From Candidatus Omnitrophota bacterium (lineage in GTDB: Bacteria > Omnitrophota > Gorgyraeia > Aquiviventales > Aquiviventaceae): 64,000 nucleotides of DNA. Each line of letters starts with the position of its first letter. Position 1 is the first letter of the stretch. The stretch is taken from contig JACPSR010000142.1 of assembly GCA_016193175.1 (NCBI GenBank), positions 54,332 to 118,331 of the forward strand, written 5' to 3'. The position numbers and the translations under genes are program-made. This document shows, in pieces, positions 1,009 through 58,289 of this stretch. The notes below the pieces were generated by a model that was given only the letters and a program-made list of their open reading frames with translations, searched no databases and was not told the origin of the DNA.

Positions 1009-1154
1009 GATCCCACGCCCTGCGACGGGCTGCCGCAGGCAGCCCCTGCAACGCGAGCAAGACGGACGGACATGGTGAGGCAAGCGTTCTTCAGTCTAGG
1101 TGGTGTTGCAGCGCCCCGCCCAAGGGCGGGGCAGCCGCAGGGCGTGGGATGATC
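1009..1154 (+). repeat. Palindromic junction element, copy 1 (146 bp)
   Basis: Left arm GATCCCACGCCCTG 1009-1022 and right arm CAGGGCGTGGGATGATC 1138-1154 (13-bp inverted repeat). Hairpins GGGCTGCC-GCA-GGCAGCCC 1027-1045 and CCCCGCCC-AA-GGGCGGGG 1114-1131. Inner stem CTGCAAC/GTTGCAG 1046-1052/1105-1111. The ATG of the next CDS (1149) lies in the right arm. Confidence 0.85.
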
Positions 1155-11418: not shown

Positions 11419-12918
11419 ATGGAACGTGCAGACCACCGAGGTGAAGGTACCCTCTCGCCCCGCGAGGTTGAGATGGTCAATGCCTACGGTCCCTATCATC
11501 ATGCCGTCTGGTCTGCTGGGGGTGTGGCGATCAGCCATGAAGAACGGCTCAGCGGCCGCGGGGAGTTCTTGGTCGATCGGATTCGCGAATCCCTCCTGAA
11601 GCGTTTCACACTCGATGAGATCAAGACGTTTTCCATTCTGGACGTGGGATGCTATGACGGGTGGATCCTGCAGCAACTCAGCGAGTTACCGTTTGCCCGG
11701 TTGGTCGGCATCGAGCCGCGAGAGAAAAATCTCATGAAAGGGCAGAAGGTGAGGGAACTCCTGCGCATTCCCTCGCGCGTTGAGTTCAAAGTCGGCGACC
11801 TTGATTCGCTGGGCGAGGAGACGTTCGACGTGGTCATCTGCGCTGGGTTGCTTCATCATGTCGAATCTACGCCGGCGGCGCTGCGCCGCCTGAGGGCTGT
11901 CTGCCGGCGGTTCCTGTTTATCGAGACGATCTGTCTCTCATCCCGGCATATCACGAAGGCGCTCCAGCGCGAGATTGAGATGAAGGATGTCGTGTACTTT
12001 TATAAGCGCAAAATCTGCGGGGTGACAGGCCAGAAATGGGAGTCATCCTATTCCGATGGGTCAACTACCAGGCTCTGTGTCGTGAACATCCCGTCCTTGG
12101 AATCGCTGACGATGTATCTGGATCTCTGTGGATTTGAAGGGGTGGACATCGTGACGAATCCCGCGGAGTACCGTGCAGCCGTCTGGAGGGATCAACGGGC
12201 CTGCAACGCCGTCTGTCTTTCCGCGGTCATCCGGGCCGAACAGCCGGAAGCCGTTTCTGAGGAAGAGTCCTGGGTGCAGGGGTATGAGAGGGGGCTGGCC
12301 AGAACGATCCTGAAGAAAGCGTACGTGCAACCGCTCTATGAGATCTGGTGTCTGCGAAAGAAACGGGTCCGTCTTCCCGTGTCCTGTTGGACCACCTGGC
12401 TGTATCTCCGTTCGCCAAACCGGTGGGCGGGCCTGTGTCATTCCCTCACGGCCATCTGGTTCAAGGATCGGTATGCGCTGGAGATCGTCAAAAATCTGAG
12501 GTTTAACCCGGAAGACAAGCTCCGTCTGGAATATGGCAAAGTCCTCTGCGACGAGGGCGATACCGAGGGGGCCATCGCGGTTCTGAAGGCCGTGGTGCAG
12601 ACGCTCAACGCGGATTGGTGGTCGGTGTATCGGTCCTTTGCGCTGCTCTCGGACGCCTACGTGCGGATCGGATCGCACGAAGAAGCACAGCGGTATGCCT
12701 CGTTGTGCGCCACCTGCAACCCGAAGTTTCCGCACATCGCTCAGGCGGCACGGGGATTTCCCGAGAGCGACCGACAGGACCACGATGATGGTGCGATGTC
12801 GATGATCCCACGCCCTGCTTCGGTCCCGCCAACGGCGGGACCGTGTTTGCCCACAGCGCATCAACCCATCTTGCAAACACACGCTGCCTGCGGCAGCGGG
12901 AAGCGGGGCGTGGGATGA
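11419..12918 (+). CDS. Class I SAM-dependent methyltransferase with C-terminal helical-repeat (TPR-like) region
   Basis: ILDVGCYDGWILQQL and FDVVICAGLLHHV motifs. The last ~38 codons (12805-12918) are encoded by junction element copy 2, so the true C-terminus is uncertain. An alternative start is at 11473. Confidence 0.6.
   Translation: MERADHRGEGTLSPREVEMVNAYGPYHHAVWSAGGVAISHEERLSGRGEFLVDRIRESLLKRFTLDEIKTFSILDVGCYDGWILQQLSELPFARLVGIEPREKNLMKGQKVRELLRIPSRVEFKVGDLDSLGEETFDVVICAGLLHHVESTPAALRRLRAVCRRFLFIETICLSSRHITKALQREIEMKDVVYFYKRKICGVTGQKWESSYSDGSTTRLCVVNIPSLESLTMYLDLCGFEGVDIVTNPAEYRAAVWRDQRACNAVCLSAVIRAEQPEAVSEEESWVQGYERGLARTILKKAYVQPLYEIWCLRKKRVRLPVSCWTTWLYLRSPNRWAGLCHSLTAIWFKDRYALEIVKNLRFNPEDKLRLEYGKVLCDEGDTEGAIAVLKAVVQTLNADWWSVYRSFALLSDAYVRIGSHEEAQRYASLCATCNPKFPHIAQAARGFPESDRQDHDDGAMSMIPRPASVPPTAGPCLPTAHQPILQTHAACGSGKRGVG
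12802..12918 (+). repeat. Palindromic junction element, copy 2 (117 bp, right arm slightly degenerate)
   Basis: Left arm ATGATCCCACGCCCTG 12802-12817 and right arm GGGGCGTGGGATGA 12905-12918. Hairpins GGTCCCGCC-AAC-GGCGGGACC 12822-12842 and CGCTGCC-TGC-GGCAGCG 12882-12898. Inner stem GTGTTTGC/GCAAACAC 12843-12850/12873-12880. Confidence 0.85.
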
Positions 12919-13843: not shown

Positions 13844-14005
13844 GATCCCACGCCCTGGCACCGGTAGCGCCTCAATGACCACGAGTGAATACGCGGACAC
13901 CGCAGGCTGGTTCGGCACTGCCGAGGCCGGCCAGCAGATGAGACCAACCGGAGGAGCCGGCCAGGGCCACGCGATGCGTGGCCCGTGCCAGGGCGTGGGA
14001 TGATC
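13844..14005 (+). repeat. Palindromic junction element, copy 3 (162 bp, longest)
   Basis: Arms extend to 15 bp: CCCACGCCCTGGCAC 13847-13861 and GTGCCAGGGCGTGGG 13985-13999. Hairpin GGGCCACGC-GAT-GCGTGGCCC 13964-13984. The downstream ATG at 14000 lies in the right arm. Confidence 0.85.
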
Positions 14006-14845: not shown

Positions 14846-15762
14846 TGCGAGGCCGCATCATGAACGCCGTCTTCGCGCGGATGCAGGCTGATGAGAACGT
14901 CTTCTTCCTCACGGCCGACATGGGAATTAATTTGGTCGAGAAGATTCAACAGGTGTTTCCATCCCGGTATCTCAATGTGGGCATTGCCGAACAGAACTTG
15001 ATCGGCATCTGTGCCGGGCTGTGCAATCTGGGCTTCCGTCCGGTGGCCTATACGATCTCGCAGTTCATCAGCCATCGCTGCTATGAGCAAATTCGCAACG
15101 ACCTGAAGCTTCACGACTATCCTATTACGCTGCTGGGAACCTCTGCGGGGTTTGATAACGCTCCGCTGGGCCCGACCCACCATATCGTGGACGACTGGGG
15201 CGCGGTCCGCACCATCCCGGGGATTGACATCTACTGTCCGTCCAGCGTCAGTTATGCGGACACGCTCGTGGACAAGATCTTGGCGCAGCCTCGTCCGGCG
15301 TATGTGCGGATTCCAAAGGGAGCCTTTGAACAACCCGCCTCGCGAGACGATACCCTGTATCTCGAGGGGGCACGCGGGGGCCCCTTGCTGATCTCGTATG
15401 GGTCAACCGTACAGACGTGCTTAGCGCTTCAGGCGCGGCATGCGGAGGTATCAGTCCTGGTGTGTAATCGGTTGCGTCCACTGCAGGCCGATCTCGTGCG
15501 GGCCGCGCTGCAGCGGCATCCCAGCGCATTCGTGGTCGAGGATCATTTCCCCAGCAGCGGCCTGTACAACATGCTATGTCAGTTCTGCATGGAGCATCGC
15601 CTCGCCTGCCAGCTGAGCAGTTTGGGCCCGCGGGAGGAGTATCACCTGAAGGTCGGGGCCTCGGCAGGCTACTATCATCGGCTCTATGGTTTTGACGAAC
15701 AAGGGATCGAGCGCGCGTTGTGGGGCCAATCACATGCTCTCATTGATTCTCCCAACCTATAA
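14845..15762 (+). CDS. Transketolase, C-terminal (pyrimidine-binding) subunit
   Basis: FFLTADMG, NVGIAEQNLIGICAGL and GPTHH motifs. TGATG junction with the N-terminal subunit. Confidence 0.85.
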   Translation: MRGRIMNAVFARMQADENVFFLTADMGINLVEKIQQVFPSRYLNVGIAEQNLIGICAGLCNLGFRPVAYTISQFISHRCYEQIRNDLKLHDYPITLLGTSAGFDNAPLGPTHHIVDDWGAVRTIPGIDIYCPSSVSYADTLVDKILAQPRPAYVRIPKGAFEQPASRDDTLYLEGARGGPLLISYGSTVQTCLALQARHAEVSVLVCNRLRPLQADLVRAALQRHPSAFVVEDHFPSSGLYNMLCQFCMEHRLACQLSSLGPREEYHLKVGASAGYYHRLYGFDEQGIERALWGQSHALIDSPNL

Positions 15763-16831
15763 TCGACCCGGGTTGCTTCGCCGGGTCCTGAGGTATTACG
15801 AGGCATGCCAATTTCCGCATCGGGTGCTCGTGGCGGACTCGAGTGACGCGCCTGCGGCGGAGGCGAACCGGCAGATCGTGGAGGCCGTCTCCCGCGCCAT
15901 GCCGGTCGAGTACCGGCGGTATGATTCCGCTCTTGAGGTGCCGATGAAACTGGCGGAAGCGCTCGAAGGGATTCAGTCGACGTACGCGGTGATCGGATCG
16001 GATGACGATTTTTTTGTTCCGAGTGCACTAGAACGAGGGGTGGCGTTTCTGGAATCGCATCCCGACTACGCCCTGGCGCATGGTGAGTCGGCGTATTTCG
16101 TCTTAGAGTCTGACAGGATCGTTTCCGGCCGGTGTGTGGGGGTGGGGCGATATCTGCAACGCACGATCGATCACGCGAGCGGCTCGGAGCGATTGGCGGC
16201 GCATCTCGCGCAATACACCACCACCTTTTATTCAGTCCATCGGACGGAGCAACTGCGCAGGAATTGGCGTCGAGTGGCTGCGCTGCCTCTCGATCATTTG
16301 TTCGACGAGTTGCTCCCGTCATGCCTGTCGCTCATCGAAGGCAAGAGTCAGAAACTCGACGAACTCTACATGGTGAGGCAAATCCACTCTGCGCAAACAG
16401 CACGGACACGGGGTTCCAGAGGCCTCGGTTGGGTGATGGGTCAACGCTGGTCAGAACACTACGCACGATTTCAGGATCTGCTGGCTGAGGAGCTGGTTGG
16501 CCAGGACAGGATCACCATGGAGGCCGCGAGGGAAGTTGCCAAACAGGCGTTCCGGCCCTATGTAGCCCGATATGTGGCCAAAGAAGTGGGGAAGTCGCGT
16601 CAGTTGCACGATAGCGTCGCCATCAGGATCGGGGCGCGAGTGCGCAGGGTGGCACGAGGGATGCCTCTGCTGCGTTGGGGCTGGCACCTGGCACGCGCGA
16701 TCAGGCCGATGTCGCGCACAGCCATCTCGCTTGAGGCGTTGCTTCGCCAGACCTCGCGCTATCACGAAGGATTTATGCCGATCTATCGAGCGGTGACGGC
16801 GCAGAACGGTCACGAGGTCGGTGCGTCATGA
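15734..16831 (+). CDS. Glycosyltransferase family 2-like protein (paralog 1 of a tandem pair)
   Basis: LILPTYNRPGLLRRVLRYY N-terminus (GT-A style) and VADSSD. C-terminal SRYHEGFMPIYRAVT is shared with the next gene. Confidence 0.5.
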   Translation: MLSLILPTYNRPGLLRRVLRYYEACQFPHRVLVADSSDAPAAEANRQIVEAVSRAMPVEYRRYDSALEVPMKLAEALEGIQSTYAVIGSDDDFFVPSALERGVAFLESHPDYALAHGESAYFVLESDRIVSGRCVGVGRYLQRTIDHASGSERLAAHLAQYTTTFYSVHRTEQLRRNWRRVAALPLDHLFDELLPSCLSLIEGKSQKLDELYMVRQIHSAQTARTRGSRGLGWVMGQRWSEHYARFQDLLAEELVGQDRITMEAAREVAKQAFRPYVARYVAKEVGKSRQLHDSVAIRIGARVRRVARGMPLLRWGWHLARAIRPMSRTAISLEALLRQTSRYHEGFMPIYRAVTAQNGHEVGAS

Positions 16832-16941
16832 TCCGCCCTAGCAGTCCCGCCGAAGGCGGGGTCGCCCGACGACCACAGGATTGCAACAGCGGGTGCGACG
16901 GCTCCACCACGGGTGGAGCCCTGCCAGGGCGTGGGATGATC
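16828..16941 (+). repeat. Palindromic junction element, copy 4 (114 bp, left arm carries a 2-nt deletion)
   Basis: Left arm ATGATCCGCCCT 16828-16839 (CA missing) and right arm CAGGGCGTGGGATGATC 16925-16941. Hairpins CCCGCC-GAA-GGCGGG 16846-16860 and GGCTCCACC-ACG-GGTGGAGCC 16900-16920. Upstream stop TGA 16829-16831 lies in the left arm; downstream ATG 16936 lies in the right arm. Confidence 0.85.
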
Positions 16942-18096
16942 ACCCTGTGCGTTCCCACCTACAATCGTCCCGCGTTCATCGAGCGGTTGCTGCGCTACTA
17001 CGCAGCCACCAGCTCTCGGCACTGGATCTTCATCGGCGATTCCAGCGATCCCAATGATGCCAAGCGCACCCAGCGGGCGGTCGCGTCGTGGGGGGGGCGG
17101 CTCCAGGTGCGCTACGAGGCGTGCGCGGGCTTAAGTTCCTGTGCCGCCTTGGAACATGTCAGTCGCCTCATCATGACCCCCTATTGCGCCTTTTTAGGCG
17201 ATGACGATTTCCTCTGCACGAATGGGATCGAGCAGTGCCTGGAGTTTCTGGAGCGCCATCCCAGCTACGGGGCGGCTCATGGAAAAGGCCTCCTGTTCCA
17301 AACCGAAACCGGAGCTGCGTACGGACCGATTGGGATGGTCAGGCCGTATCCGCAGGTCGTGCTGAATGCGGATTCTGCTGCCGGGCGACTGCGAGACGTA
17401 TTGACCGCACGCGTCGGCGGGCTGCTGTATTCGGTGCATCGGACTCACACGTGGCGGGCCATGTTCGCGGGGATCGGGCGGCTCTCAGGCACGACGAATA
17501 CGAACATCTTCAAAGATGAGCTCATCGCGGTTTGCCTCTCCGCCATTCGCAACACGGTGCAGGAACTCGACTGTTTGTACCTGATTCGTCACACACATGA
17601 GGCGATCTATAAGTACCCCACTATCTACGATTGGGTGACAGATCCGATGTGGTTTCCGTCGTTCCAGGCATTCCGTGATCGCCTGGTCACGGAACTGATG
17701 GAGCAGGACCGTCTGCATGAGCCAGACGCGCAGGCCGTCTTCAAGGATGTGTTCTGGTCCTTTCTGGCTCATGTCCTCATGAACGGTTGGCAGCGATCCC
17801 GGCAACCAGCGCGAGTGAAACCAGTGAGTCGGCTGCAGGTTCTGGCCAAGCGCGTGCCGGGCCTACAGCGCGGGTGGCAAAAGGTGTTGGCCATTCGGCA
17901 GCGGTGGCAAGACGAACTGTCGCTGCCGGCGCTGCTTCACCCCTCCTCACCGTACCATGACGATTTCATGCCGATTTATGAGGCGGTGACCCACGCGCCC
18001 GCGGACGCACTCGTGGCGGTGGCGTCCGAGCGCCACCTGGTGTCCAGCAAGGGCGCGTTGGATGCTGGTGCGGTGCTGAGAGAGCCCCATGGCTGA
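16936..18096 (+). CDS. Glycosyltransferase family 2-like protein (paralog 2 of a tandem pair)
   Basis: MITLCVPTYNRPAFIERLLRYY, IGDSSD and C-terminal SPYHDDFMPIYEAVT parallel the preceding gene. The open frame extends to the ATG at 16828 through the repeat. Confidence 0.5.
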   Translation: MITLCVPTYNRPAFIERLLRYYAATSSRHWIFIGDSSDPNDAKRTQRAVASWGGRLQVRYEACAGLSSCAALEHVSRLIMTPYCAFLGDDDFLCTNGIEQCLEFLERHPSYGAAHGKGLLFQTETGAAYGPIGMVRPYPQVVLNADSAAGRLRDVLTARVGGLLYSVHRTHTWRAMFAGIGRLSGTTNTNIFKDELIAVCLSAIRNTVQELDCLYLIRHTHEAIYKYPTIYDWVTDPMWFPSFQAFRDRLVTELMEQDRLHEPDAQAVFKDVFWSFLAHVLMNGWQRSRQPARVKPVSRLQVLAKRVPGLQRGWQKVLAIRQRWQDELSLPALLHPSSPYHDDFMPIYEAVTHAPADALVAVASERHLVSSKGALDAGAVLREPHG

Positions 18097-18271
18097 ACGG
18101 GATCAGACGCGGGTGTTGATTGTTGGGTGCCGACAAGTGGGCAGTCGGCATCTGCAGGCCGTCGCGACGTTGCCACACGTTGCTGAGATTGACGTCATCG
18201 ATCCGCGCGCTGCGGCGACGCTGACGAGGCACACAGAATCGGTGTTTGGCTACGAAGGAGGAACTGGATGA
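18089..18271 (+). pseudogene. N-terminal remnant (about 40 aa) of a Rossmann oxidoreductase, paralogous to the 5' end of CDS 21227-22231
   Basis: MAERDQTRVLIVGCRQVGSRHLQAVATLPHVAEIDVIDPR versus MAESDNARVLIVGCGELGSRHLQAVATLPDVAEIDVVDSR. Both have the same ATGGCTGA junction. The 60-codon ORF then diverges and stops. Confidence 0.65.
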
Positions 18272-18981: not shown

Positions 18982-20076
18982 GTGTCAGGATCGCCATGGC
19001 GTGGTGAGATGACGGCTGTGCTGACCGAGTATGCACAGGCCCATGTGGTGCGGGAGCCGCGTCTTGTCGAGCGGCTGTTAGTCATCGGGGGGCTGCCCGG
19101 GTGCGGGAAGGGCCTGTTGGCGCCGATCCTCGGCACCTTGGCCCGGATCGAGATCCAGAAGTACAACGAGGCCATCGAGCATGTCTGTGGACTGCGCCTC
19201 CTCGGCAAGCTGGATGAGGAGACGGCCACGGTGATGATCCGGATGCTCACGGACTTGGATCTCTATTACCTCAGCATGTCCAGAGAAGTTAATCTGAGAT
19301 TCGGGGACATCACATCCGTGTGGAAGAATGCCGGAACCCTCCGATATCTCCGAAGGCTGTACCAGCCCGGGGATGCGGCGGCGGTCGAGAGGATTCGACG
19401 CGAACACCCCATCCTCCAGATTCTCCTGCACAGCGGTCTGGCGATCAGCCCGCCGCTGTTTCGGGCCTTGGGAAGCGCCGTGCGGTTGCTCGATCTGGTC
19501 CGGCATCCCCTCCACCTCATTCACGTGTCGTGGCGGGCGTACATCGAACGCTATGGCATCGATGTCCGAGATTTCACGCTCTGGTGTGCGTACGAGGGCC
19601 GGGCGGTGCCGTATTTTGCGCAGGGATGGGAGGACCTCTACCTCAGATCGAACCCCATGGATCGCGTGATTTTTTCGATCGAGCGCTTGCTGGAGATGGG
19701 TCGCCAGGCGATAGAGAGCTTGCCTGATGATCAGAAGGCACAGGTGTTGATTGTCCCATTCGAGCGCTTTGTGCTGGATCCCTGGCCGTACCTGGAGCAA
19801 ATCGAGGGGTGGCTGGGCACACGGCGGACCTCCCTGACACGCAGGACCATGAAGCGGCAGCGCGTGCCGAGGGATCGGGTGACCGCGACGGTTGACCGTC
19901 CGATCGACAAGCTGTATCGCTGGAAGTCTGCGGGGAAGGCCACAGGTGCAGGCGGTGAGTTGGCCCAGCTGCGGCGCGCGGTGGCGACGGAGGCCTCCGC
20001 GGAGGGCCTCAAGGTACTCGACCGACTGTGTGCCGACTATGAGGCGACCTACCTCGACGGCGGCGTGAGATGGTGA
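18982..20076 (+). CDS. P-loop (GxPGxGKG) protein of unknown function, kinase- or sulfotransferase-like
   Basis: VIGGLPGCGKGLL resembles an NMP-kinase-type Walker A motif. GTG start at 18982 or ATG at 19009. The C-terminus LCADYEATYLDGGVRW is duplicated as a remnant at 23326-23413. Confidence 0.4.
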   Translation: MSGSPWRGEMTAVLTEYAQAHVVREPRLVERLLVIGGLPGCGKGLLAPILGTLARIEIQKYNEAIEHVCGLRLLGKLDEETATVMIRMLTDLDLYYLSMSREVNLRFGDITSVWKNAGTLRYLRRLYQPGDAAAVERIRREHPILQILLHSGLAISPPLFRALGSAVRLLDLVRHPLHLIHVSWRAYIERYGIDVRDFTLWCAYEGRAVPYFAQGWEDLYLRSNPMDRVIFSIERLLEMGRQAIESLPDDQKAQVLIVPFERFVLDPWPYLEQIEGWLGTRRTSLTRRTMKRQRVPRDRVTATVDRPIDKLYRWKSAGKATGAGGELAQLRRAVATEASAEGLKVLDRLCADYEATYLDGGVRW

Positions 20077-20342
20077 CCGGCGTCGGTCTCAGGGGGCTTG
20101 CGACGTCCACGCGACGTGGAGGGATTGGCACGCTGCGGGTTGCGGTTCTCGGGACGGGAAGTGCCGGCCTGATGCCTCTGCGTGCGCTGCGTCAGCTCGA
20201 GGGAGTTGAGCCAGTCGCGGTGCCAAGGCGTCTTGAATGCATCGAGGCGTTGGCTGCGATGGGCATGCGCACATCGCGAGATCTGCGTGAGGCAGCCGCA
20301 ACGGGCGCCATCCGCCGTGAGGGGCAATCCCATGACTCCTGA
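20070..20342 (+). pseudogene. N-terminal remnant (about 70 aa) of a Gfo/Idh/MocA oxidoreductase, paralogous to the 5' end of CDS 23407-24423
   Basis: RVAVLGTGSAGLMPLRALRQLEGVEPVAVPRR...RDLREAAATGA versus RVAVVGTGSAGMRHLDVLRQLDGVESIAVPKR...RDLREVVASGA. Both have the same ATGGTGA stop/start junction. Similarity ends near 20312 and the ORF stops at 20342. Confidence 0.65.
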
Positions 20343-21234
20343 GGCAGCCGAAGTTCGTATCGCCGCACCATCCATCGACGCTGGAGAACTCTATGATGTG
20401 GCGGCGGCTGGTGGGGAGTTCTGGTTCTACCAAGATCTCCGAGACAAGAGCCCTCGGTGGTATGATGAATGCTATTTCAACCCAGACTGCGTGTTGCTGT
20501 TTCCGGAGACCCGGCAGGTCTACTGGTTTGATCTCGACCACGTCTCGGTGGGGGCGGAGGCGACCGGTACCCGGCGGCACGTCTTGGGGAACCTCTGGAG
20601 GAAAAAATTCGCCTTCGCCTCCGATGGTAATCGACTGAGTATCCTGCCCTGTGCAGTGACAGGCCTGTGGAGGGGCAGGCCCACGGCGATGCGGCCGCAG
20701 GAGACAGAAGGCATCGCCTACGTGGTCGGCGATCGCTATCGGAGAGTATGCGAGATCAGGGCCGATGGCACGATGGATCCTCAAGAGCGACGCGAGCTCG
20801 ATGAGGCCTGGCGTCAGCACCGGAAGTTGAAGGTGGGGGTACCACTGGGCCGGAGCGTGCTCATCTATGGGATCCGGCTGGCGTTCCAGCAAAAGGGGGT
20901 CTACAGTTTTGCTTCGAAAACCGTGGTCATCCCATCCCCGCAGGCGCGGGCGTTCTCATGGGAGCAGGCATCACTTGGGAACATCTGCGTGGGATCGGAT
21001 GGCTCCTGTTCCATCTACCGTGAACAGACCTCGCGGCCGGGTCTCCTGCAGGTCCTCGCAACCTATGCTCCCACGGTGCTGCAACGGGCTAGCGGCATGT
21101 TGAACCGATCCCCGGATGGGTTCAAGGAATGGGTGCGGTCGCTGGCGCGGCCGATGCTTCGGTGTCTGCTCACATTTGAAGTCGACCATGCGCGGTGCCC
21201 GTTCACGATCTTTGTGAGGGAGGCCGATGGCTGA
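20332..21234 (+). CDS. Hypothetical protein (300 aa), no domain recognised
   Basis: Long ORF with balanced, protein-like composition. Its stop lies in an ATGGCTGA junction with the next gene. It sits between the two remnant-bearing junctions. Confidence 0.5.
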   Translation: MTPEAAEVRIAAPSIDAGELYDVAAAGGEFWFYQDLRDKSPRWYDECYFNPDCVLLFPETRQVYWFDLDHVSVGAEATGTRRHVLGNLWRKKFAFASDGNRLSILPCAVTGLWRGRPTAMRPQETEGIAYVVGDRYRRVCEIRADGTMDPQERRELDEAWRQHRKLKVGVPLGRSVLIYGIRLAFQQKGVYSFASKTVVIPSPQARAFSWEQASLGNICVGSDGSCSIYREQTSRPGLLQVLATYAPTVLQRASGMLNRSPDGFKEWVRSLARPMLRCLLTFEVDHARCPFTIFVREADG

Positions 21235-23325: not shown

Positions 23326-23413
23326 GCCAACCGTGTCATCCTTCGTTGAGACAGCGAGGCGGCTGTGCGCAGCCTATGAGGCGATGTACCTCGACGGTGG
23401 CGTGGCATGGTGA
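23326..23413 (+). pseudogene. C-terminal remnant of a paralog of CDS 18982-20076
   Basis: ARRLCAAYEAMYLDGGVAW* versus LDRLCADYEATYLDGGVRW*. DNA similarity runs from 23363, matching 20026 onward. It lies in otherwise non-coding 23281-23406. Confidence 0.55.
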
Positions 23414-30505: not shown

Positions 30506-32025
30506 CGCGAGGAGGAGGTTGGCGGCTCCCGCTGCTGCTCTATCTGGCGGGCCTGCTCCATTGGATCGGCTTCCTGTATCTCGATGTCACGCCCTCCGGC
30601 CAGGAGCGGGAACTGGTGTCCATAGCGCTCCGGAGTCCTGAGACGCTCTTGAAGCGTCCGAACTTCGGGATGGAAGACGGCGTCTACATCGGCGACGTCT
30701 GGTTCGTCTATGAGCGCATGCTCACGGCGCTCCAGCAGGCGGTTCGCAGCCGCCAGATCCCCTACCATCTGCCTGGCCTGAGCGGCTATGAGATGATGCC
30801 AACCACCGCCTCGCCGGTCGGCGATCGGCTCTTCGGTTTTCCCAATGGCTGGCCCTGGTCGCCGGAGGCGCTCCTCTTGGCCGTCCTGGATCTTCCAACC
30901 TTCGTCATCGTGACGTGGCTCATCATGTACTCGGTGGGATTTGCGGGGTGCCTCTTGATCCGGCGCCAGTACAGTCTGGGGCCGATGGCCTTCACGTTCC
31001 TGGCGGTGCTGTTCCATCTGAACGGTTGGATCACCACCCACATGACGACCAAGATGCCCGATAACACCGGCTACTATCTGAGCCCGTATCTCGTGCTGCT
31101 CCTGCTGAGGGCCGGGGAAGTGGCCCCCACGGATCGCTACGCGCAGCGGCGTCTCGGGTTATGGATCGGGTTGGTGATGGCGCTGATGTGGTGGCAGGGG
31201 TCGTGCCATCCCTTCATCCACTGGCTCACCATGCTGGGCTTCTGGGGCATTGTGAATTGGAGGAAATGGCGGGTCACGGTGGTGAGTGTGGTGAGCGCGT
31301 TTGCCCTGGCGGCGTTTCGCGTGATTCCGCCTGCGCTCAGTTGGGGCATGAAGCACCGCTATCATGTGGACAATCCCGCGATCATGGGGTTCTGGTCATT
31401 CGATCAATACATCGACGCGCTCGCGGTGTGCCACCCGTTCATCCCCGACGGGGGGTGGGAGCAATTCAATTGCTACGTCAGCGTGTTTGGCTTATGGGCG
31501 ATTCTCTATCTCGCGTTCTGGGCACCATGGAACGGCTCGAGGTGGGTGCGCCTGCGTCCCTGGCAGTCCTTGCTCATTCCCTCCGTGATCTTGGCGGTGA
31601 TGTCGTTCCGTCACATGAAGAGCGTGCTCATTCCGAATTGGATCCCCCTCTTTAACGCCGAGGCCTACACAGGACGATACATGATGATCCCCCTGGTCGT
31701 GTGGATCATTGTCGCGAGTATCAACCTCCAGGGCGCGGTCGAGGCGTTCTGGTCGCAGCGGCGGCTGCGATGGCTCATGGTCAGCGGGCTTGGCGTGATC
31801 GCGGCGTCCTTGCTGAACCATTCGCGCTTGTGGCGCATCTGGATGGCGACAAAGTTTGCGCACTGGGGTGGCTATGGGCCCACGCTGCCTGCGCGGTTGG
31901 CGAACGACATGACCGACCGCCTGTACATCAACGCGGTCGACCTGAGTCTGGGCATCAGCCTGGTCGCCTTGGTCGTGGTGATCGCCTTGTTGGTCGTGCC
32001 GCGCAAGCGACAGGGCGTGGGATGA
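30502..32025 (+). CDS. Polytopic membrane protein of unknown function (polymerase, ligase or GT-C candidate)
   Basis: 507 aa with many hydrophobic helices. ATGA junctions on both sides. The last codons QGVG* coincide with a solo junction-element arm. Confidence 0.55.
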   Translation: MTRGGGWRLPLLLYLAGLLHWIGFLYLDVTPSGQERELVSIALRSPETLLKRPNFGMEDGVYIGDVWFVYERMLTALQQAVRSRQIPYHLPGLSGYEMMPTTASPVGDRLFGFPNGWPWSPEALLLAVLDLPTFVIVTWLIMYSVGFAGCLLIRRQYSLGPMAFTFLAVLFHLNGWITTHMTTKMPDNTGYYLSPYLVLLLLRAGEVAPTDRYAQRRLGLWIGLVMALMWWQGSCHPFIHWLTMLGFWGIVNWRKWRVTVVSVVSAFALAAFRVIPPALSWGMKHRYHVDNPAIMGFWSFDQYIDALAVCHPFIPDGGWEQFNCYVSVFGLWAILYLAFWAPWNGSRWVRLRPWQSLLIPSVILAVMSFRHMKSVLIPNWIPLFNAEAYTGRYMMIPLVVWIIVASINLQGAVEAFWSQRRLRWLMVSGLGVIAASLLNHSRLWRIWMATKFAHWGGYGPTLPARLANDMTDRLYINAVDLSLGISLVALVVVIALLVVPRKRQGVG

Positions 32026-34812: not shown

Positions 34813-35889
34813 ATGTACACGGACCTGACCACGTTGTGCATCGGACGAGCGAGTTCGTTACGAGCCGCCATAGCCCAGATGGACCGCAGCCGATTTGGCA
34901 TCGTGCTGGTGACCGACGACCAGCGACGCCTGGTGGGCACGATCACCGATGGGGATATCCGCCGCGCCATTTTGGCGAACGTGGATCTTGAGCAATCGGT
35001 GAACGTGCTCCTGGCGCGAAAGGCAACAACTCGCTTTGCGAAGCCCATCACGGCCGCGGCGGGCTCCGATCCCAATCTCTACCTGGCACTCCTGAAACAG
35101 CACAACATCCTTCACCTTCCGCTGATCGACGATGAGCAGCACGTCGTGGGGATGGTGACGAGGGATGAATTTCTGCCCAACGAGGTGCTGCCGCTCCACG
35201 CAGTGGTCATGGCGGGAGGGCTCGGTAGTCGTCTGCACCCCCTCACCGAAGAGCTCCCGAAACCGATGCTGCCGATCGGCAATCGTCCATTGCTCGAGAT
35301 CATCATCGCGCAGCTACGAGAGGCCGGCATTCGTCGCGTCCAGGTCACGACGCACCACAAGCCGGAGAAGATTGAGGAGCATTTTGGCGATGGGAAGGAC
35401 TTCGGGATCAACCTCTCCTATGTCGCAGAAGACCGACCGTTAGGAACAGCGGGGGCCCTGGGATTGCTCGGCGTTCCCAAGGAGACGACGTTGGTCATGA
35501 ACGGCGATATCCTGACGCAGGTGGATTTCCGGGCGATGCTGGTCTACCACCGGGAGTACGGGGCGGACCTCACGATGGCAGTGCGCCAGTACGACCTCAA
35601 GGTGCCCTACGGCGTGGTCGAGTGCGAGGATTCGGTGGTCCGTTCCCTCAGCGAAAAACCCACGGTGGGATTTTTTGTCAACGCGGGCATTTATCTGCTG
35701 GAGCCTCCCGTCTACCAATTCATCCCGAACGGCCAACCGTTCGACATGACGGAGTTGATCCAGTGCCTGCTCAAGGCGGGGAGGATGGTCGTCAGCTTCC
35801 CGGTCCGGGAATACTGGCTTGATATCGGAGAGCACGCGGGGTATGAGCGGGCAGAGCAAGACGTTCGCAACGAGAAGGTGCGGGTATGA
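34813..35889 (+). CDS. CBS-domain sugar-phosphate nucleotidyltransferase (PtmE/HddC-like)
   Basis: Tandem CBS region (LVGTITDGDIRR, VVGMVTRDEF), then NTP-transferase motif AVVMAGGLGSRLHPLTEELPKPMLPI. Confidence 0.8.
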   Translation: MYTDLTTLCIGRASSLRAAIAQMDRSRFGIVLVTDDQRRLVGTITDGDIRRAILANVDLEQSVNVLLARKATTRFAKPITAAAGSDPNLYLALLKQHNILHLPLIDDEQHVVGMVTRDEFLPNEVLPLHAVVMAGGLGSRLHPLTEELPKPMLPIGNRPLLEIIIAQLREAGIRRVQVTTHHKPEKIEEHFGDGKDFGINLSYVAEDRPLGTAGALGLLGVPKETTLVMNGDILTQVDFRAMLVYHREYGADLTMAVRQYDLKVPYGVVECEDSVVRSLSEKPTVGFFVNAGIYLLEPPVYQFIPNGQPFDMTELIQCLLKAGRMVVSFPVREYWLDIGEHAGYERAEQDVRNEKVRV

Positions 35890-36002
35890 TCCCACGCCCT
35901 AGCTGGGCTCCGCCTAAAGGCGGAGCCGCGAAACGGTGCCCCGTGTTTCTGTCATTGATGTTTCGCCCCACCAATAGGCGGGGCAGCCAGGGCGTGGGAT
36001 GA
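35886..36002 (+). repeat. Palindromic junction element, copy 5 (117 bp)
   Basis: Left arm ATGATCCCACGCCCT 35886-35900 and right arm CAGGGCGTGGGATGA 35988-36002. Hairpins GGCTCCGCC-TAAA-GGCGGAGCC 35906-35927 and CCCCACC-AATA-GGCGGGG 35966-35983. Inner stem CGAAAC/GTTTCG 35929-35934/35960-35965. Upstream TGA 35887-35889 and downstream ATG 35999 lie in the arms. Confidence 0.9.
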
Positions 36003-40943: not shown

Positions 40944-42607
40944 CATTGGACACGCGAGTGGAGACTCCTCCAACCTTGGCAGACGAACCCTCTCATCCTG
41001 ACGCTGAAGGATCCACCCAGACATCTGCAAGGGCGCTCGAGCAACTGGAAGCTGCCTTGGACGCGGTGCGTCGTCAGTGCCCCTGGCTTCCGGTGTTCGC
41101 AATTCGATGGATGCACTTAAAGCATCCCGTGCACCCCGTGCAGCTGCTCCTCCTGCGCGAACATCTGGGTGTTAGTGGAGAGACACCCGATCGTACCGAG
41201 CGACCTCGGTGGGTATTCACCCAGTGGATTCGCCCAAGACTCCTGAGGCGACTCGGACAATGTGTGATCTATGCGATCTACGTCAGTTGCCGGCTGGTCA
41301 GGCTTCAGATTGCGCTGCGTCGTCAGGTGCGGGCCCTCAGGCGACAGCCGTTTGAGGTGCTGATCAAAACGTGCTGCTTTGAAGCAGAGCGGCCGGCGGA
41401 TGGGAGCGATTTTTATTTCGGTGATTTGCAGCAACGATTGGTCAGGCGTGGCGTGCGAACACTGCTCTTGTCCGGGAATGTGCGGCGTGGCAGTTGGACG
41501 GCGTTTGGCCGGGCCCATCTCGCCGCGCCGCCGCTGGCACGGCTGCCGGAGTTAGCGCTGCTGTCTCCACTGGCGCCACTTCGTCTGATGCTGGCGCAAG
41601 TTCGGGCCGCCATCCGGTTGCGTCGCAGGGTGCGGGAGACCGACGATCCGTTGATCAAACACATCACCCTGCTCGCCAGCCACGATTGTCTGGCGCCGGA
41701 TACCACGCGGGCTGGACTGTATTGCTGGGTCATGAAGCGTGCCGTTCAGACGTGGCGTCCTCGGGCCTTCGTGACCCTCTACGAGGGACACGCCTGGGAG
41801 GCGTGTGCGCGATGGGGCGTGAAGGCTCACGATCCGTCCTGTCAAACCGTGGGGTATCAACATACCGCCATCTTTCCGGAATCGCTGTCGTTAACGTCTC
41901 CATCGAAGGCGCCGACAGACCGTCTCGTGCCTGACACCATTCTGGCCTTGGGGCAGATTCCGTTGGACTTCATGGCGTCTGGACACGCAGATCATCACGT
42001 CCGTCTGGTGCGGTTTGGGAGTTTTCGCTATCGCCATGCGAATGTCGATCGACCGGCGGATCGAACCCGTCGTGTCATCCTCGTCGTTCCCGAAGGGTTT
42101 GCGTCGGAGGTCAAGGTGCTCTTTGAGTTCGCCGTGGCCTGCGCCAAGCGGTTGCCCCGCTATACCTTTGTGCTCCGATGCCATCCAGAAGTGCCCATGG
42201 CCGTGGCGGTCCGATTGATGCCAGGGGCACTGACCAGCCAACCGAACATTGAGCTTTCGGACCGTCGTCTGATCGAGGAGGATTTTGCCCGCTCGTCAGC
42301 CGTGTTGTATCGCGGATCCTCGACGGTCCTCTATGCGGTCCTTCACGGCCTGTTGCCGCTGTACGTCCATATGCCCACCCTGCTGGATCGTGACCCGCTG
42401 TACCGCATGCCGGCCTGGCGCCGACGCTGTGTCAGTCCTGATCATCTCGCGACGCAGTTGGCGTGGCATGAGCAAGCCCCGATGGAGCGCTTGGAAGAGG
42501 AATGGGCGCGGGCGGTGCGGTATGTCACGGATTATACCGGCCCGGTGACCGATGAGCAGATCGACGCGTGGCTTACCACGGTCGGTCTCAACGGGAGCGC
42601 GCGCTGA
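40940..42607 (+). CDS. Large hypothetical protein (555 aa), possible GT-B-like surface carbohydrate biosynthesis protein
   Basis: No firm motif. C-terminal SAVLYRGSSTVLYAVLHGLLPLYVH resembles the GT-B C-terminal region. Its stop TGA 42605-42607 opens junction element copy 6. Confidence 0.45.
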   Translation: MTLDTRVETPPTLADEPSHPDAEGSTQTSARALEQLEAALDAVRRQCPWLPVFAIRWMHLKHPVHPVQLLLLREHLGVSGETPDRTERPRWVFTQWIRPRLLRRLGQCVIYAIYVSCRLVRLQIALRRQVRALRRQPFEVLIKTCCFEAERPADGSDFYFGDLQQRLVRRGVRTLLLSGNVRRGSWTAFGRAHLAAPPLARLPELALLSPLAPLRLMLAQVRAAIRLRRRVRETDDPLIKHITLLASHDCLAPDTTRAGLYCWVMKRAVQTWRPRAFVTLYEGHAWEACARWGVKAHDPSCQTVGYQHTAIFPESLSLTSPSKAPTDRLVPDTILALGQIPLDFMASGHADHHVRLVRFGSFRYRHANVDRPADRTRRVILVVPEGFASEVKVLFEFAVACAKRLPRYTFVLRCHPEVPMAVAVRLMPGALTSQPNIELSDRRLIEEDFARSSAVLYRGSSTVLYAVLHGLLPLYVHMPTLLDRDPLYRMPAWRRRCVSPDHLATQLAWHEQAPMERLEEEWARAVRYVTDYTGPVTDEQIDAWLTTVGLNGSAR

Positions 42608-42719
42608 TCCCACGCCCTCGCAGCCTCGCCTTCGGCGAGGTCGCCAACGAGACGAAATGTCAAGAGGGGCTGGCGACGGCTCCGCCTACGGCGGAGCCCT
42701 GCCAGGGCGTGGGATGATG
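42605..42719 (+). repeat. Palindromic junction element, copy 6 (115 bp)
   Basis: Left arm TGATCCCACGCCCT 42605-42618 and right arm CAGGGCGTGGGATGATG 42703-42719. Hairpins CCTCGCC-TTC-GGCGAGG 42624-42640 and GGCTCCGCC-TAC-GGCGGAGCC 42678-42698. Inner stem GTCGCCA/TGGCGAC 42640-42646/42671-42677. Confidence 0.9.
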
Positions 42720-56780: not shown

Positions 56781-57531
56781 GGAACGCTTCAATCTGCGCG
56801 GAAAAGTCGCCGCGATCATTGGGGGCGCGGGGTACCTGTGTTCCACGCTGGCGGAGGCGATGGCGGAAGCCGGCATATCGGTCTTCATCCTCGACGTGGC
56901 TGAGCCGGTGCGGGGCAACCCGGTACCGACGGGTACCATGCTGCCGTGCCTTCGCTGCGATGTCACCTCGAAGGATGATCTCATTCGCTGTCGGGACCAG
57001 ATTCAGCGAGAGCACGGCCGGATCGATATCCTGCTCAACGGCGCCGGGACAAACGCCCCCACCCCATTCTTCGACATCTCGCTCGAGGAATTCGACCGCA
57101 TCATGCGAGTGAACCTGCTGGGAACCCTCCTAAGTTGCCAAGTGTTCGGCGAAGTTATGGTGCGCCAGCGTGCGGGGAGCATCATCAATTTCACCTCTGT
57201 ATCCAAAGACCCCCCCCTTTCGAAAGCGTTCGTCTACTCCACGGCCAAGGCGGGCGTGGCCAATCTGACGCAGAACCTGGCGCGGGAGTGGGCGCCGTTC
57301 AACGTGCGGGTGAACGCGCTGCGGCCAGGGTTCTTCCCAACCGCCTGGAGCATGCGGCACTTCATTGACGAGCCGCGCAAGGCCGCCATCCTGAACCACA
57401 CTCCCATGGGTCGGTTTGGTCAGCCCGAGGAGCTCATCGGCGCGGTGCTGTGGCTGGCCTCCGATGCGGCCAGCTTCGTGACTGGTTCCATCGTGACGGT
57501 GGATGGCGGTTTCACGGCGATGACCATTTAA
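56767..57531 (+). CDS. Short-chain dehydrogenase/reductase
   Basis: AAIIGGAGYLCSTLA, YSTAKAG catalytic motif and C-terminal VTGSIVTVDGGFTA. Confidence 0.85.
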   Translation: MPTVEERFNLRGKVAAIIGGAGYLCSTLAEAMAEAGISVFILDVAEPVRGNPVPTGTMLPCLRCDVTSKDDLIRCRDQIQREHGRIDILLNGAGTNAPTPFFDISLEEFDRIMRVNLLGTLLSCQVFGEVMVRQRAGSIINFTSVSKDPPLSKAFVYSTAKAGVANLTQNLAREWAPFNVRVNALRPGFFPTAWSMRHFIDEPRKAAILNHTPMGRFGQPEELIGAVLWLASDAASFVTGSIVTVDGGFTAMTI

Positions 57532-58289
57532 TGAGCTTGCGACGTCAGGGTCGTGTCGTGGCGATCACGGGAGGCACACGGGGGATTGGTCGCTCGGTCG
57601 CAGAGCTGTTCCATGACCGTGGTGAAGCCGTTGCGGTCTGCGGCCGTTCAGACCCAGAGCCTGCGCTGCCACCCGAGATTCTGTTCGGCCGTGTCGACGT
57701 GCGCGATCGCGAGGCTCTGGACGGTTTCGTTGGGAAGGTTGTGGAGCAGTGGGGAGCGCCGAATGTGTTCGTCAATTGTGCCGGCGTCTCGCGGTGGCGG
57801 GCCGTTGAGGAGATCGATGAGGCCTTTGTGCGGGAGGTGCTGGACACGATTGTCCGTGGGACGCTGTGGGGATGTGCGGCGGCTGCGAAGGTGATGACAG
57901 AGGGCGGCTGCATCGTGAATATCTCGAGCCTCGCTGGCAAGCGAGGCAGCGCGAATAACAGCGTCTACTGCGCCGCCAAGTTCGCGGTCAACGGCATCAC
58001 CCAGGCGTTGGCGAAGGAGCTCGGTCCGAGGGGCATTCGCGTCAATGCGGTGTGTCCGGCCTATGTGCCGACACCTCAGGTCCTTGCCGCGTTAGCGGAG
58101 CCGGTCTCGCCAGCCCGTGGTCAAGATGTGGAGCAGTACCTGGAGCAATTTGCGGCGACGCAGACTGCGCTGGGGCGGCTCTCCGACGCGCACGAGATCG
58201 CCGAGGCCGTGTACTTCCTGGCCAGTCCAGCAGCGTCTGCGATCACCGGACAGTGTCTCAATGTGGACTGCGGAACGCTCCCTCAGTGA
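57531..58289 (+). CDS. Short-chain dehydrogenase/reductase
   Basis: VAITGGTRGIGRSV, YCAAKFA catalytic motif and ITGQCLNVDCG. TAATG junction. Confidence 0.85.
   Translation: MSLRRQGRVVAITGGTRGIGRSVAELFHDRGEAVAVCGRSDPEPALPPEILFGRVDVRDREALDGFVGKVVEQWGAPNVFVNCAGVSRWRAVEEIDEAFVREVLDTIVRGTLWGCAAAAKVMTEGGCIVNISSLAGKRGSANNSVYCAAKFAVNGITQALAKELGPRGIRVNAVCPAYVPTPQVLAALAEPVSPARGQDVEQYLEQFAATQTALGRLSDAHEIAEAVYFLASPAASAITGQCLNVDCGTLPQ

Follow-up and report, generated by a model that had tools for sequence, protein, structure and literature searches.

Hairpins scattered through the window (the whole 64-kb stretch of DNA that was analysed) belong to short repeated elements that sit at the stop/start overlaps of adjacent co-directional genes. 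We consider it likely, from the organisation of these sequences, that they are MITE-like nonautonomous elements which keep neighboring genes translationally coupled through a relay mini-ORF, with the hairpins as modules of the element. An earlier, sequence-only reading of this DNA had proposed that compensatory substitutions between hairpin copies indicate a selected nucleic acid fold. We read the hairpins cited there as parts of a mobile repeat that also carries a reading-frame constraint, a point absent from that reading.

The elements are bounded by conserved terminal inverted repeats of 11 to 17 bp (ATCCCACGCCC…GGGCGTGGGAT) that close three internal hairpins, forming a four-way junction. 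Four to six variable but complementary pairs lengthen the terminal inverted repeat to ∼17 bp. A longer form of the element end is TGATCCCACGCCCTG, with the variants ATCCCACCACC and ATCCCCCCACC, and two loci (L222 and L223) carry terminal-repeat variants in which both arms are changed. Hairpin sequences vary between subfamilies and are swapped as modules, with Watson-Crick pairing kept throughout. The outer stem plus all three hairpins were predicted in 74 of 87 copies. Six copies of 107 to 157 nt each occur in the window (Table 1), with covariance-model scores of 88 bits for copy D (model R1), the one addressed by the sequence-only reading, 115.9 bits for copy G and 47.9 bits for copy C. Domain assignments of the flanking genes come from a Pfam scan of 10 window proteins; copy A, for instance, separates an E1 dehydrogenase alpha-like gene from a beta-like gene. 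The canonical ATG-to-TGA mini-ORF is found only in copy F. Among the other five, the frame of copy C is open with a displaced start, that of copy G is open with CTG, not ATG, as its left codon, and that of copy A is interrupted by a stop at 1076. Copies B and D are fused to neighboring genes: the relay frame of copy B runs on from an upstream methyltransferase/TPR ORF (11419-12918), to which it adds 38 codons up to the right-hand TGA, whereas ATG 16828 of copy D is in frame with the downstream gene and reads into it. In addition, a solo right end lies at a further stop/start overlap, with neither a left arm nor hairpins; the covariance model had no match here, and this sequence may be either what is left of a copy or a coincidental match.

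Table 1. Coordinates of element copies and associated features in the window
Feature	Position	Strand	Remarks
Copy A	1010..1150	+	141 nt, length 0 mod 3
Copy A flanks	TAA 986-988; right ATG 1149	+	TAA of upstream gene; right ATG is start of beta-like gene
Copy B	12805..12916	+	112 nt
Copy C	13845..14001	+	157 nt; interior atypical; left flank CG, not TG
Copy C open frame	ATG 13830 to TGA 14001-14003	+	
Copy C right ATG	14000	+	start of transketolase-N gene
Copy D	16831..16937	+	107 nt; element of the sequence-only reading
Copy D outer stem	16831-16844 with 16921-16937	+	3-nt deletion in left arm, ATCC---GCCC
Copy D hairpins	1: 16846-16860; 2: 16861-16899; 3: 16900-16920	+	
Copy D left ATGA	16828-16831	+	stop of ORF 15686-16831
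Copy D right ATGA	16936-16939	+	start of GT2 gene (flanking Pfam)
Copy F	35889..36000	+	112 nt; between nucleotidyl-transferase gene and epimerase gene
Copy F mini-ORF, intact	ATG 35886 to TGA 36000-36002	+	38 codons
Copy G	42607..42715	+	109 nt; same subfamily as copy D
Copy G left TGA	42605-42607	+	stop of ORF 40850-42607
Copy G right ATG	42714	+	start of next ORF
Solo right end, CAGGGCGTGGGATGA	32011..32025	+	at stop/start overlap, ORF 30502-32025 / next ORF
Empty target TAATGA	57529..57534	+	contains stop/start overlap and ATGA

A gapped terminal-repeat scan of metagenomes, which demanded exact 11-nt ends and thus favors intact copies, yielded 95 loci with 111 copies, 101 of them unique. 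The genome scan used a 14-mer end and returned mostly chance matches; among the matches listed, only two (L036 and L103), both in Omnitrophota MAGs, hold real copies. The family comes from groundwater-type metagenomes and Omnitrophota MAGs. Copies measure 106 to 172 nt, most of them 106 to 136 nt, and have no transposase gene. Comparison of the window with the metagenome loci showed that elements match and flanks do not, with the exception of one homologous locus (L145); across the ∼100 unique copies, flanks are mostly unrelated and only a few copies have flanking genes in common. Screening of 541 kb from 99 sources for unpaired ends enclosing a long ORF gave only chance one-mismatch matches, and an autonomous element with these terminal repeats was not found in that material. 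The distribution of the copies, their flanks and the empty sites described below suggest transposition.

Flanks of the type TG…GA, or the reverse complement, border 87 of the 101 unique copies and provide a direct TGA repeat on both sides; L198, with TAA on both sides, is the only copy with co-varying TAA flanks. The flanking TGA may be a target-site duplication or an element-borne TGA inserted beside another, two origins that would leave the same sequence here. In 72/87 copies (83%) the left flank is ATGA, the stop/start overlap of co-directional genes, and the terminal A of the element restores a second ATGA at the right end. There, the right ATG starts an ORF in 79/87 copies, counting ORFs that span 60 codons or more or that run off the contig. 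Of the 78 copies whose flank is long enough, 54 have an upstream ORF that ends at the left TGA and 10 have one that continues into the element. Filled and empty versions of the same junction were also found, in diverged homologues (60 to 87% amino acid identity) rather than near-identical strains. Specifically, one homologous junction is empty in L166 (CGATGATCGACC) and filled in L175 (CCATGA-element-TGATCGACC), and L145 carries an element between a homologous gene pair whose junction is empty in the window (Table 1; flanks with 70 to 82% DNA identity). Among contigs encoding identical proteins, all of those covering the copy A and copy F junctions carry the element, including, among the matches listed, 6/6 contigs with an epimerase identical to the neighbor of copy F; the corresponding contigs for copy D begin ∼100 nt upstream of the gene, short of the element junction.

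A translational role is suggested by element length: 80 of 87 copies, across 12 length classes, measure 1 mod 3, which places the left ATG and the right TGA in one frame; the seven copies of other lengths are all singletons. The left codon is ATG in 72, GTG in 8 and TTG in 2 of these 87 copies. The relay frame is free of stops in 75/87 copies, as compared with 40.5 ± 4.5 (maximum, 54) in shuffled sequences; the other two sense frames are stop-free in 52 and 46 copies, and the antisense frames in 43, 60 and 50. An in-frame stop was found in 12/87 copies, 7/87 are out of frame, and a complete start-to-TGA mini-ORF is present in 67/87. This frame, of 35 to 57 codons and not conserved in sequence, is the sole ORF of the element. 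Length changes in the stems follow the same rule: an additional base pair in hairpin 1 is accompanied by an additional loop base, which puts the 109-nt and 112-nt forms one codon apart. Gene callers had annotated two of the mini-ORFs, each overlapping the downstream gene by 4 nt, and the one annotated in L223 overlaps the upstream gene by 4 nt as well. A profile of 19 mini-ORF peptides matched only 9 called proteins, indicating that gene callers rarely annotate these frames.

Judging from these reading frames, the small in-frame ORF of the element probably relays ribosomes to the next gene. A ribosome ending the upstream gene would reinitiate at the left ATGA, translation of the 35 to 45 codons of the mini-ORF would melt the hairpins, and the ribosome would then stop at the right ATGA and reinitiate on the downstream gene; insertion would therefore be nearly neutral for the operon. 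Both junctions are the canonical 4-nt stop/start overlap of ATGA termination-reinitiation coupling (PMC6728339, PMC10666635) but, unlike in plain coupling, a mobile element has doubled the overlap here and placed a nonconserved peptide ORF in between. In a version of this idea that we regard as improbable, the four-way junction in the mRNA brings both AUGA overlaps next to each other at the foot of the outer helix, for direct handover of a ribosome from the upstream gene to the downstream start. This would amount to structure-assisted reinitiation or bypass, with the codon-quantised mini-ORF as a fail-safe, and the element would then be a mobile, self-contained translational coupler selected for both fold and frame.

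The hairpins themselves were verified against the sequence. Those at 16900-16920 (GGCTCCACC-ACG-GGTGGAGCC), 42678-42698 (GGCTCCGCC-TAC-GGCGGAGCC), 35906-35927 (GGCTCCGCC-TAAA-GGCGGAGCC) and 42624-42640 (CCTCGCC-TTC-GGCGAGG) are present as originally described, and the stem at 12823-12841 (GTCCCGCC-AAC-GGCGGGAC) is 8 bp long, including the 7 bp first recognised. With a stem of at least 8 bp and a loop of 3 to 5 nt as criteria, the window holds 18 perfect hairpin registers, 11 of them inside the 738 nt of the six elements, as compared with an average of 4.65 in mononucleotide shuffles of the whole window. The region 16828-16941 folds with a z of −3.15 under RNA parameters and −3.25 under DNA parameters. 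The A:T-to-G:C exchange at stem position 7 was borne out, the pair being GC in 9 and AU in 3 sequences of the family alignment. The four inner-stem pairs said to differ in sequence while remaining complementary were each located once, within copies A, B, F and G. The sequence-only reading further claimed that hairpin classes swap between left and right positions. One class does occupy the left position in one copy and the right position in a second, but these copies come from different subfamilies; moreover, the reverse complement of a perfect hairpin stem is the same sequence, and stem sequence alone therefore does not reveal orientation.

Covariation was assessed within one subfamily and in a covariance-model alignment, the latter in place of a MAFFT alignment of subfamilies 1 and 4. 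The MAFFT alignment put the gap that separates the 8-bp from the 9-bp form of hairpin 1 in the wrong place, and pair counts by column would have been wrong. For the 12 sequences of the subfamily that includes copies D and G, pairing extends to 98.2% of the cells, 8/38 pairs show double changes, and the covariation score of 0.156 exceeds those of shuffles (0.054 ± 0.010; 0/500 reach 0.156) and of slid partners (at most 0.053). The covariance-model alignment of 135 distinct rows, which was fitted to the model and holds both strands of most copies, has 97.7% of stem cells paired (99.9% for outer-stem pairs) and a score of 0.510 versus 0.109 in shuffles and at most 0.074 with slid partners. Double substitutions affect 31/38 pairs in this alignment, many of them clade-level events or swaps of whole hairpin modules, with far fewer independent events than cells. 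Within subfamilies, divergence per site is 0.01 to 0.06 in the outer stem, 0.03 to 0.17 in inner stems and 0.40 to 0.67 at unpaired positions. Loops are thus nearly randomised, and the little-diverged stems beside loops near saturation indicate that pairing was kept while the loops drifted. Collectively, the additional copies and the structure-aware alignment support the proposal of a selected fold: covariation rose above its controls, and stems were not frequently disrupted by single uncompensated changes. Selection may, nevertheless, have acted on transposition-competent source copies, not in place, and templated repair from arm to arm in palindromes could produce double changes without selection on the fold.

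Whether this fold is needed as DNA or as RNA bears on a second explanation, which we deem unlikely: that the fold is selected in the mRNA as a cis-acting structured RNA of the polycistronic transcript, with stabilisation of the message, processing by RNase III or protection from Rho as candidate functions and the mini-ORF as a secondary feature. All copies lie within co-directional gene arrays and must be cotranscribed, the structures predicted with RNA parameters are highly stable (−59 to −97 kcal/mol), and the perfect 17-bp outer stem resembles reported substrates among transcribed MITEs such as Correia (PMC3184786). The elements are also strongly oriented relative to transcription, as judged from nearest neighbors (71 same, 9 opposite), a bias that a strictly DNA-level, orientation-blind model does not predict and that stop avoidance explains only in part, given that the antisense relay frame is open in 43/87 copies. 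The pairing, however, shows none of the marks of RNA. Single mismatches on the sense strand were G·T in 15 and A·C in 26 cases overall, and 7 versus 8 in inner hairpins, so that G·U is as rare as other mismatches, with no sense-strand enrichment. We infer that the A·C excess in the outer stem stems partly from avoidance of TAG at the right end, on the basis of the mismatch counts and of '*GVG*' endings. Similarly, stable RNA tetraloops were not enriched among the 70 tetraloops on the sense strand (1 GNRA, 0 UNCG), three subfamilies contain both orientations, and the whole window had no Rfam match at the gathering threshold. A purely structural RNA would, furthermore, not be expected to quantise its length in codons or to shun stops in one frame. 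Strand-symmetric, Watson-Crick-only pairing without RNA-type loops suggests that the fold serves mainly the element DNA, for transposition or its intermediates, which is the least certain part of our proposal; a further effect in the mRNA may be a more compact spacer.

A DNA-level fold is also at the core of two recombination-based explanations. REP/BIME palindromes spread by a RAYT (Y1/HUH) transposase, or IS200/IS605-type elements inserting 3′ of a fixed tetranucleotide such as ATGA, would fit the mosaics of GC-rich hairpin modules and the subterminal hairpins at both ends, and an asymmetric target beside the left end would account for the orientation bias together with strand-symmetric Watson-Crick pairing. 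Instead of a single 20- to 40-nt palindrome with a GTAG-type head, though, these elements have three hairpins, no such head, a strongly conserved terminal inverted repeat and TGA flanks repeated on both sides, and they occur in both orientations. Strongly conserved terminal inverted repeats of 11 to 17 bp and two-sided flank repeats are not known from REPs or the ends of IS200/IS605 elements, and we hold an origin of this kind to be very improbable. Least credible of all is that the elements are attC-like sites, recognised as folded single strands by a site-specific recombinase that would shuffle gene cassettes in sugar-biosynthesis arrays. Integron attC sites and the elements are both inverted repeats between co-directional genes (imperfect and on a 57- to 141-nt scale) with conserved ends, variable centers, structure kept over sequence and biased orientation. 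Unlike attC sites, the elements lack GTTRRRY/RYYYAAC core sites, ending instead in TGATCCCACGCCC … GGGCGTGGGATGA (TCCCAC…GTGGGA), and TGA direct repeats flank them. The two genes of homologous pairs lie next to each other whether or not the element is present, which shows the inserted unit to be the element alone, not a gene plus its site, and window copies lie up to 19 kb apart (copies B and D to copy F) with several genes in between. Two simpler candidates were rejected as well: an intrinsic terminator, since the hairpins have no T-run and are located between cotranslated genes, and a palindromic operator for a dimeric protein, since stem sequences differ wholly between subfamilies while pairing is kept.

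The relay reading has a precedent in mycobacterial MIRUs, which are described as mobile and as entering at start codons; their internal ORF is coupled at −4 nt, which probably limits the effect of an insertion on expression (PMC12548453, PMC3184786). In the accounts of these units (Supply et al. 1997, via PMC12548453, PMC3184786), they are short GC-rich repeats of 40 to 100 bp in polycistronic operons, likewise the setting here. As described there (PMC12548453, PMC3184786), MIRUs share with the present elements a short reading frame that overlaps the stop codon of one neighbor and the start codon of the other at −4 nt, filled and empty sites with short direct repeats that suggest mobility, and the proposed minimal change in expression via translational coupling; the internal ORF here overlaps the neighbors' stop and start in the orientation of the genes. 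The likeness is one of organisation, and the elements occur in another phylum (Omnitrophota). MIRUs are, in those accounts, usually direct and often tandem repeats with imperfect terminal inverted repeats only (PMC12548453, PMC3184786), unlike the conserved 11- to 17-bp terminal inverted repeat, 3-bp TGA flank and covarying four-way-junction fold found here.

Bacterial MITEs (Correia, ERIC, Nezha, Chunjie) resemble the elements in being small, without transposase and with terminal inverted and direct repeats, in their numerous copies at loci unrelated to one another, in the existence of both filled and empty sites, and in their stable predicted stem-loops and the in-frame fusion of some copies with host ORFs (PMC10969869, PMC3184786). 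Consistently, the elements are below ∼500 bp and have terminal inverted repeats, a flanking direct repeat and many unrelated loci. Chunjie differs in being 178 to 235 bp long and A+T-rich, with 21-bp inverted and 9-bp direct repeats (PMC10969869, PMC3184786). Whereas typical MITEs form one long hairpin, the elements have three independently covarying internal hairpins, the stop/start overlap as target and a codon-quantised length. Rickettsia palindromic elements (RPEs) are, similarly, palindromic mobile repeats of about 100 to 150 bp that are open in frame, and both kinds can add peptide segments to host proteins, here in copy B and 9 others that extend the upstream ORF (PMC10969869). RPEs insert inside coding regions as in-frame fusions (PMC10969869); the present elements, by contrast, mostly occupy the very junction of two genes, where they form a mini-ORF of their own with an ATGA overlap at each end.

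If the relay model holds, long operons are colonised almost free of cost by a mobile element that targets the ATGA overlap, rebuilds it on both sides and carries the relay frame along. One sequence would then have to satisfy two overlapping constraints at once, hairpins with Watson-Crick pairing and an open frame quantised in codons, and the ∼100 diverse copies suffice for their statistical analysis. The idea proposed for mycobacterial MIRUs would thereby extend to an unrelated, uncultivated phylum. Possible uses include natural bicistronic-coupler parts and strain markers. In practical terms, element copies create unannotated mini-ORFs and extensions of real proteins, and they break metagenome assemblies. 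Several contigs end at an element.

The hairpins quoted in the sequence-only reading all occur where it placed them, i.e., GGCTCCACC-ACG-GGTGGAGCC at 16900-16920, GGCTCCGCC…GGCGGAGCC at 42678-42698 and 35906-35927 (loops of 3 and 4 nt, respectively), CCTCGCC-TTC-GGCGAGG at 42624-42640, the TCCCGCC stem at 12823-12841, which is in fact an 8-bp version, and the four inner stems, found once each within element copies A, B, F, and G. None of these hairpins is free-standing; each is enclosed in a short repeat with the ends ATCCCACGCCC … GGGCGTGGGAT, whose terminal inverted repeats form an outer stem closing three internal hairpins. The clustering of hairpins in the window is not due to chance: 18 perfect registers (stem of at least 8 bp, loop of 3 to 5 nt) were counted, versus a mean of 4.65 in shuffled windows, and 11 of the 18 fall within the 738 nt of the six element copies. 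The region of copy D folded with a z of ∼-3.2, with RNA and DNA parameters alike. A covariance model search of the window recovered the six known copies and nothing more. Ten flanking genes were scanned, encoding E1 dehydrogenase subunits, a methyltransferase, epimerases, transketolase-N, a GT2 glycosyltransferase, and a nucleotidyl transferase; they look like a sugar or polysaccharide cluster.

Element copies in the window, all on the + strand and between co-directional genes
Copy	Coordinates	Strand	Remark
A	1010-1150	+	
B	12805-12916	+	
C	13845-14001	+	
D	16831-16937	+	copy of the original observation; left arm with 3-nt deletion
F	35889-36000	+	
G	42607-42715	+	

A 14-mer genome scan returned mostly noise, the true copies among the matches listed being on two Omnitrophota MAG contigs (L036 and L103), which suggests that the window is of Omnitrophota origin as well. 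A gapped scan of metagenome contigs for both ends yielded 95 loci with a total of 111 copies (101 unique). When the window was compared with these loci, the elements alone aligned (80-87% identity); flanks of the window copies had no match there, one homologous locus excepted, and few copies had flanking genes in common. A covariance model built from the D/G subfamily recovered additional copies with diverged ends. One window protein is also encoded on NCBI contig JACPTW010000094.1. Several short-read Logan contigs with window proteins (L216-L232) start or stop within ∼30-100 nt of an element, a hint that assembly of this genome tends to be interrupted at the repeats. In the lineages of two outside copies, on L222 (1694-1801) and L223 (2379-2552), both terminal-repeat arms have changed jointly (ATCCCCCCACC/GGTGGGGGGAT and ATCCCACTACC/GGTGGTGGGAT); one of these copies has a GGDEF gene on one side and a T2SS-type ATPase gene on the other, which shows that the family also occurs outside sugar operons.

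The flanks read TG|…|GA or its reverse complement, i.e., a direct TGA on each side, in 87 of the 101 unique copies, which were oriented so that they read TGA; a single copy was flanked by TAA at both ends. Some transposases of the IS5 family and of the PIF/Harbinger type typically generate 3-bp TNA duplications, a possible lead for the transposase of these elements. In the window, the left flank of copy C is CG rather than TG, and its 157-nt interior is atypical and unrelated to the other subfamilies. An A precedes the left TGA in 72/87 oriented copies, so that this junction reads ATGA, and the last A of the element forms a second ATGA with the right flank. The right-end ATG begins a long ORF in 79/87 copies, and in 54 of the 78 with sufficient flank, the left TGA is the stop codon of the upstream ORF. 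Empty sites were recognized: a homologous gene pair is element-free on contig L166 (…CGATGATCGACC…) and filled on L175 (…CCATGA-[element]-TGATCGACC…), and window positions 57529-57534 (TAATGA) are empty, with the homologous junction on L145 filled. About ten or more further 4-nt overlaps in the window appear unoccupied from the ORF list. Directly supported are the small size of the elements, their terminal inverted repeats and short direct flanks, and their presence at many unrelated sites, with homologous sites that are empty. A solo right end, CAGGGCGTGGGATGA, lies at 32011-32025, exactly on the stop/start overlap of ORF 30502-32025 and the next ORF; neither a left arm nor hairpins accompany it, and either a copy was deleted and left this remnant or the match is fortuitous.

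An outer stem with three hairpins was formed by 74/87 oriented copies when G·U pairs were disallowed. Among the 12 sequences of the D/G subfamily, 98.2% of cells were paired and double changes occurred in 8/38 pairs; the covariation score was 0.156, compared with 0.054 ± 0.010 in shuffles (reached by 0/500), and slid controls did not exceed 0.053. A model-based alignment of 135 distinct rows gave 97.7% paired cells, double changes in 31/38 pairs, and a score of 0.510 (shuffles, 0.109; slid, at most 0.074), cell counts that overstate independent events because the rows were fitted to the model and most copies are represented by both strands. Within subfamilies, differences per site were 0.40-0.67 at unpaired positions, 0.03-0.17 in inner stems, and 0.01-0.06 in the outer stem, and the four to five pairs immediately inside the conserved ends showed at least four pair types with complementarity kept. 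The proposed selected fold is therefore supported: in this structure-aware comparison, covariation persisted with the added copies, and their stems were not frequently broken by uncompensated changes.

No RNA signature was found in the mismatches, G·U pairs, or tetraloops of the copies. Single mismatches on the sense strand were G·T in 15 and A·C in 26 cases overall (7 versus 8 in inner hairpins), G·U pairs in the 135-row alignment were no commoner than other, equally rare non-pairs, and 70 sense-strand tetraloops included one GNRA and no UNCG. This absence, which is negative evidence, favors a requirement that is symmetric between strands, presumably one of the DNA and linked to mobility. The copies show an orientation bias with respect to transcription (71 versus 9), which counts against a purely DNA-level view, although both orientations are present in three subfamilies. 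Action of the fold at the RNA level is the less likely alternative.

Length was 1 mod 3 in 80/87 copies over 12 length classes (106, 109, 112 … 169), the seven exceptions being singletons, and the left ATG is thereby in frame with the right TGA. This relay frame lacked stops in 75/87 copies, versus 52 and 46 for the other sense frames, 43, 60, and 50 for the antisense frames, and 40.5 ± 4.5 (maximum, 54) for shuffled interiors. A complete start-to-TGA mini-ORF, M-I-P-R-P … Q-G-V-G, was present in 67/87 copies. Hairpin 1 of the 112-nt form has one base pair and one loop base more than that of the 109-nt form, and the middle hairpins that are swapped between copies differ in length by 21 nt; length changes obey both fold and frame constraints. 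Public annotation calls two mini-ORFs, both with a 4-nt overlap with the downstream gene and, on L223, also with the upstream gene. In 10 copies, the upstream ORF continues into the element in the relay frame; among them is copy B, where the methyltransferase/TPR ORF (11419-12918) is lengthened by 38 codons. In copy C, the frame starting at ATG 13830 stays open up to the right TGA. Copy D is 2 nt shorter than the rest of its subfamily, which places ATG 16828 in the reading frame of the GT2 gene downstream (16828-18096 with the element part included), possibly as a 36-codon N-terminal extension.

ATGA at both junctions, codon-quantized length, one-frame stop depletion, and conserved covarying stems are likewise directly supported. 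Termination-reinitiation at ATGA overlaps is known (PMC6728339), and the relay idea builds on it: a ribosome ending the upstream gene would restart at the left ATGA, read through the mini-ORF, and restart once more at the right ATGA, through which the operon could tolerate the insertion. The same coupling logic was proposed for MIRUs (PMC12548453; PMC3184786). The coupling idea itself thus has precedent; the double constraint of fold plus frame and the choice of target are striking and testable. Tandem copies occur on L140 (890-1058 and 1060-1186) and L126 (2485-2593 and 2595-2680), those on L140 sharing one TGA because a single base separates them. Such pairs fit an insertion into the flank of an element already present, which would chain two mini-ORFs via ATGA overlaps.

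In the larger picture, these copies constitute a previously undescribed family of structured, ATGA-targeting, putatively translated, and putatively mobile elements. MIRUs are the nearest known system in behavior and MITEs in structure, with four of five defining MITE features present; an autonomous partner with the same ends was not found in the 541 kb searched. Chunjie differs in size, composition, and its 9-bp repeats (PMC3184786). RPEs are likewise palindromic and in frame, but their location is within genes (PMC10969869). The core features of attC and of REP/RAYT are absent from the elements, Rfam gave no family match in the window, and none of the papers listed in a literature search on MITEs and repeats of Omnitrophota describes such an element in this phylum. 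A different repeat on L157, L181, L191, and L214 (L157 and L191 being marine contigs) shares the 11-nt ends of this family but differs in its CC…GG flanks, its CCCCCACCCGGCCACC interior, and the longer palindromes that flank it. Finally, the window holds direct repeats (18077-18217 versus 21215-21355; 20023-20081 versus 23360-23418) with 76-81% identity and a spacing of about 3.1-3.3 kb, as if a block of genes inside the cluster had been duplicated in tandem.
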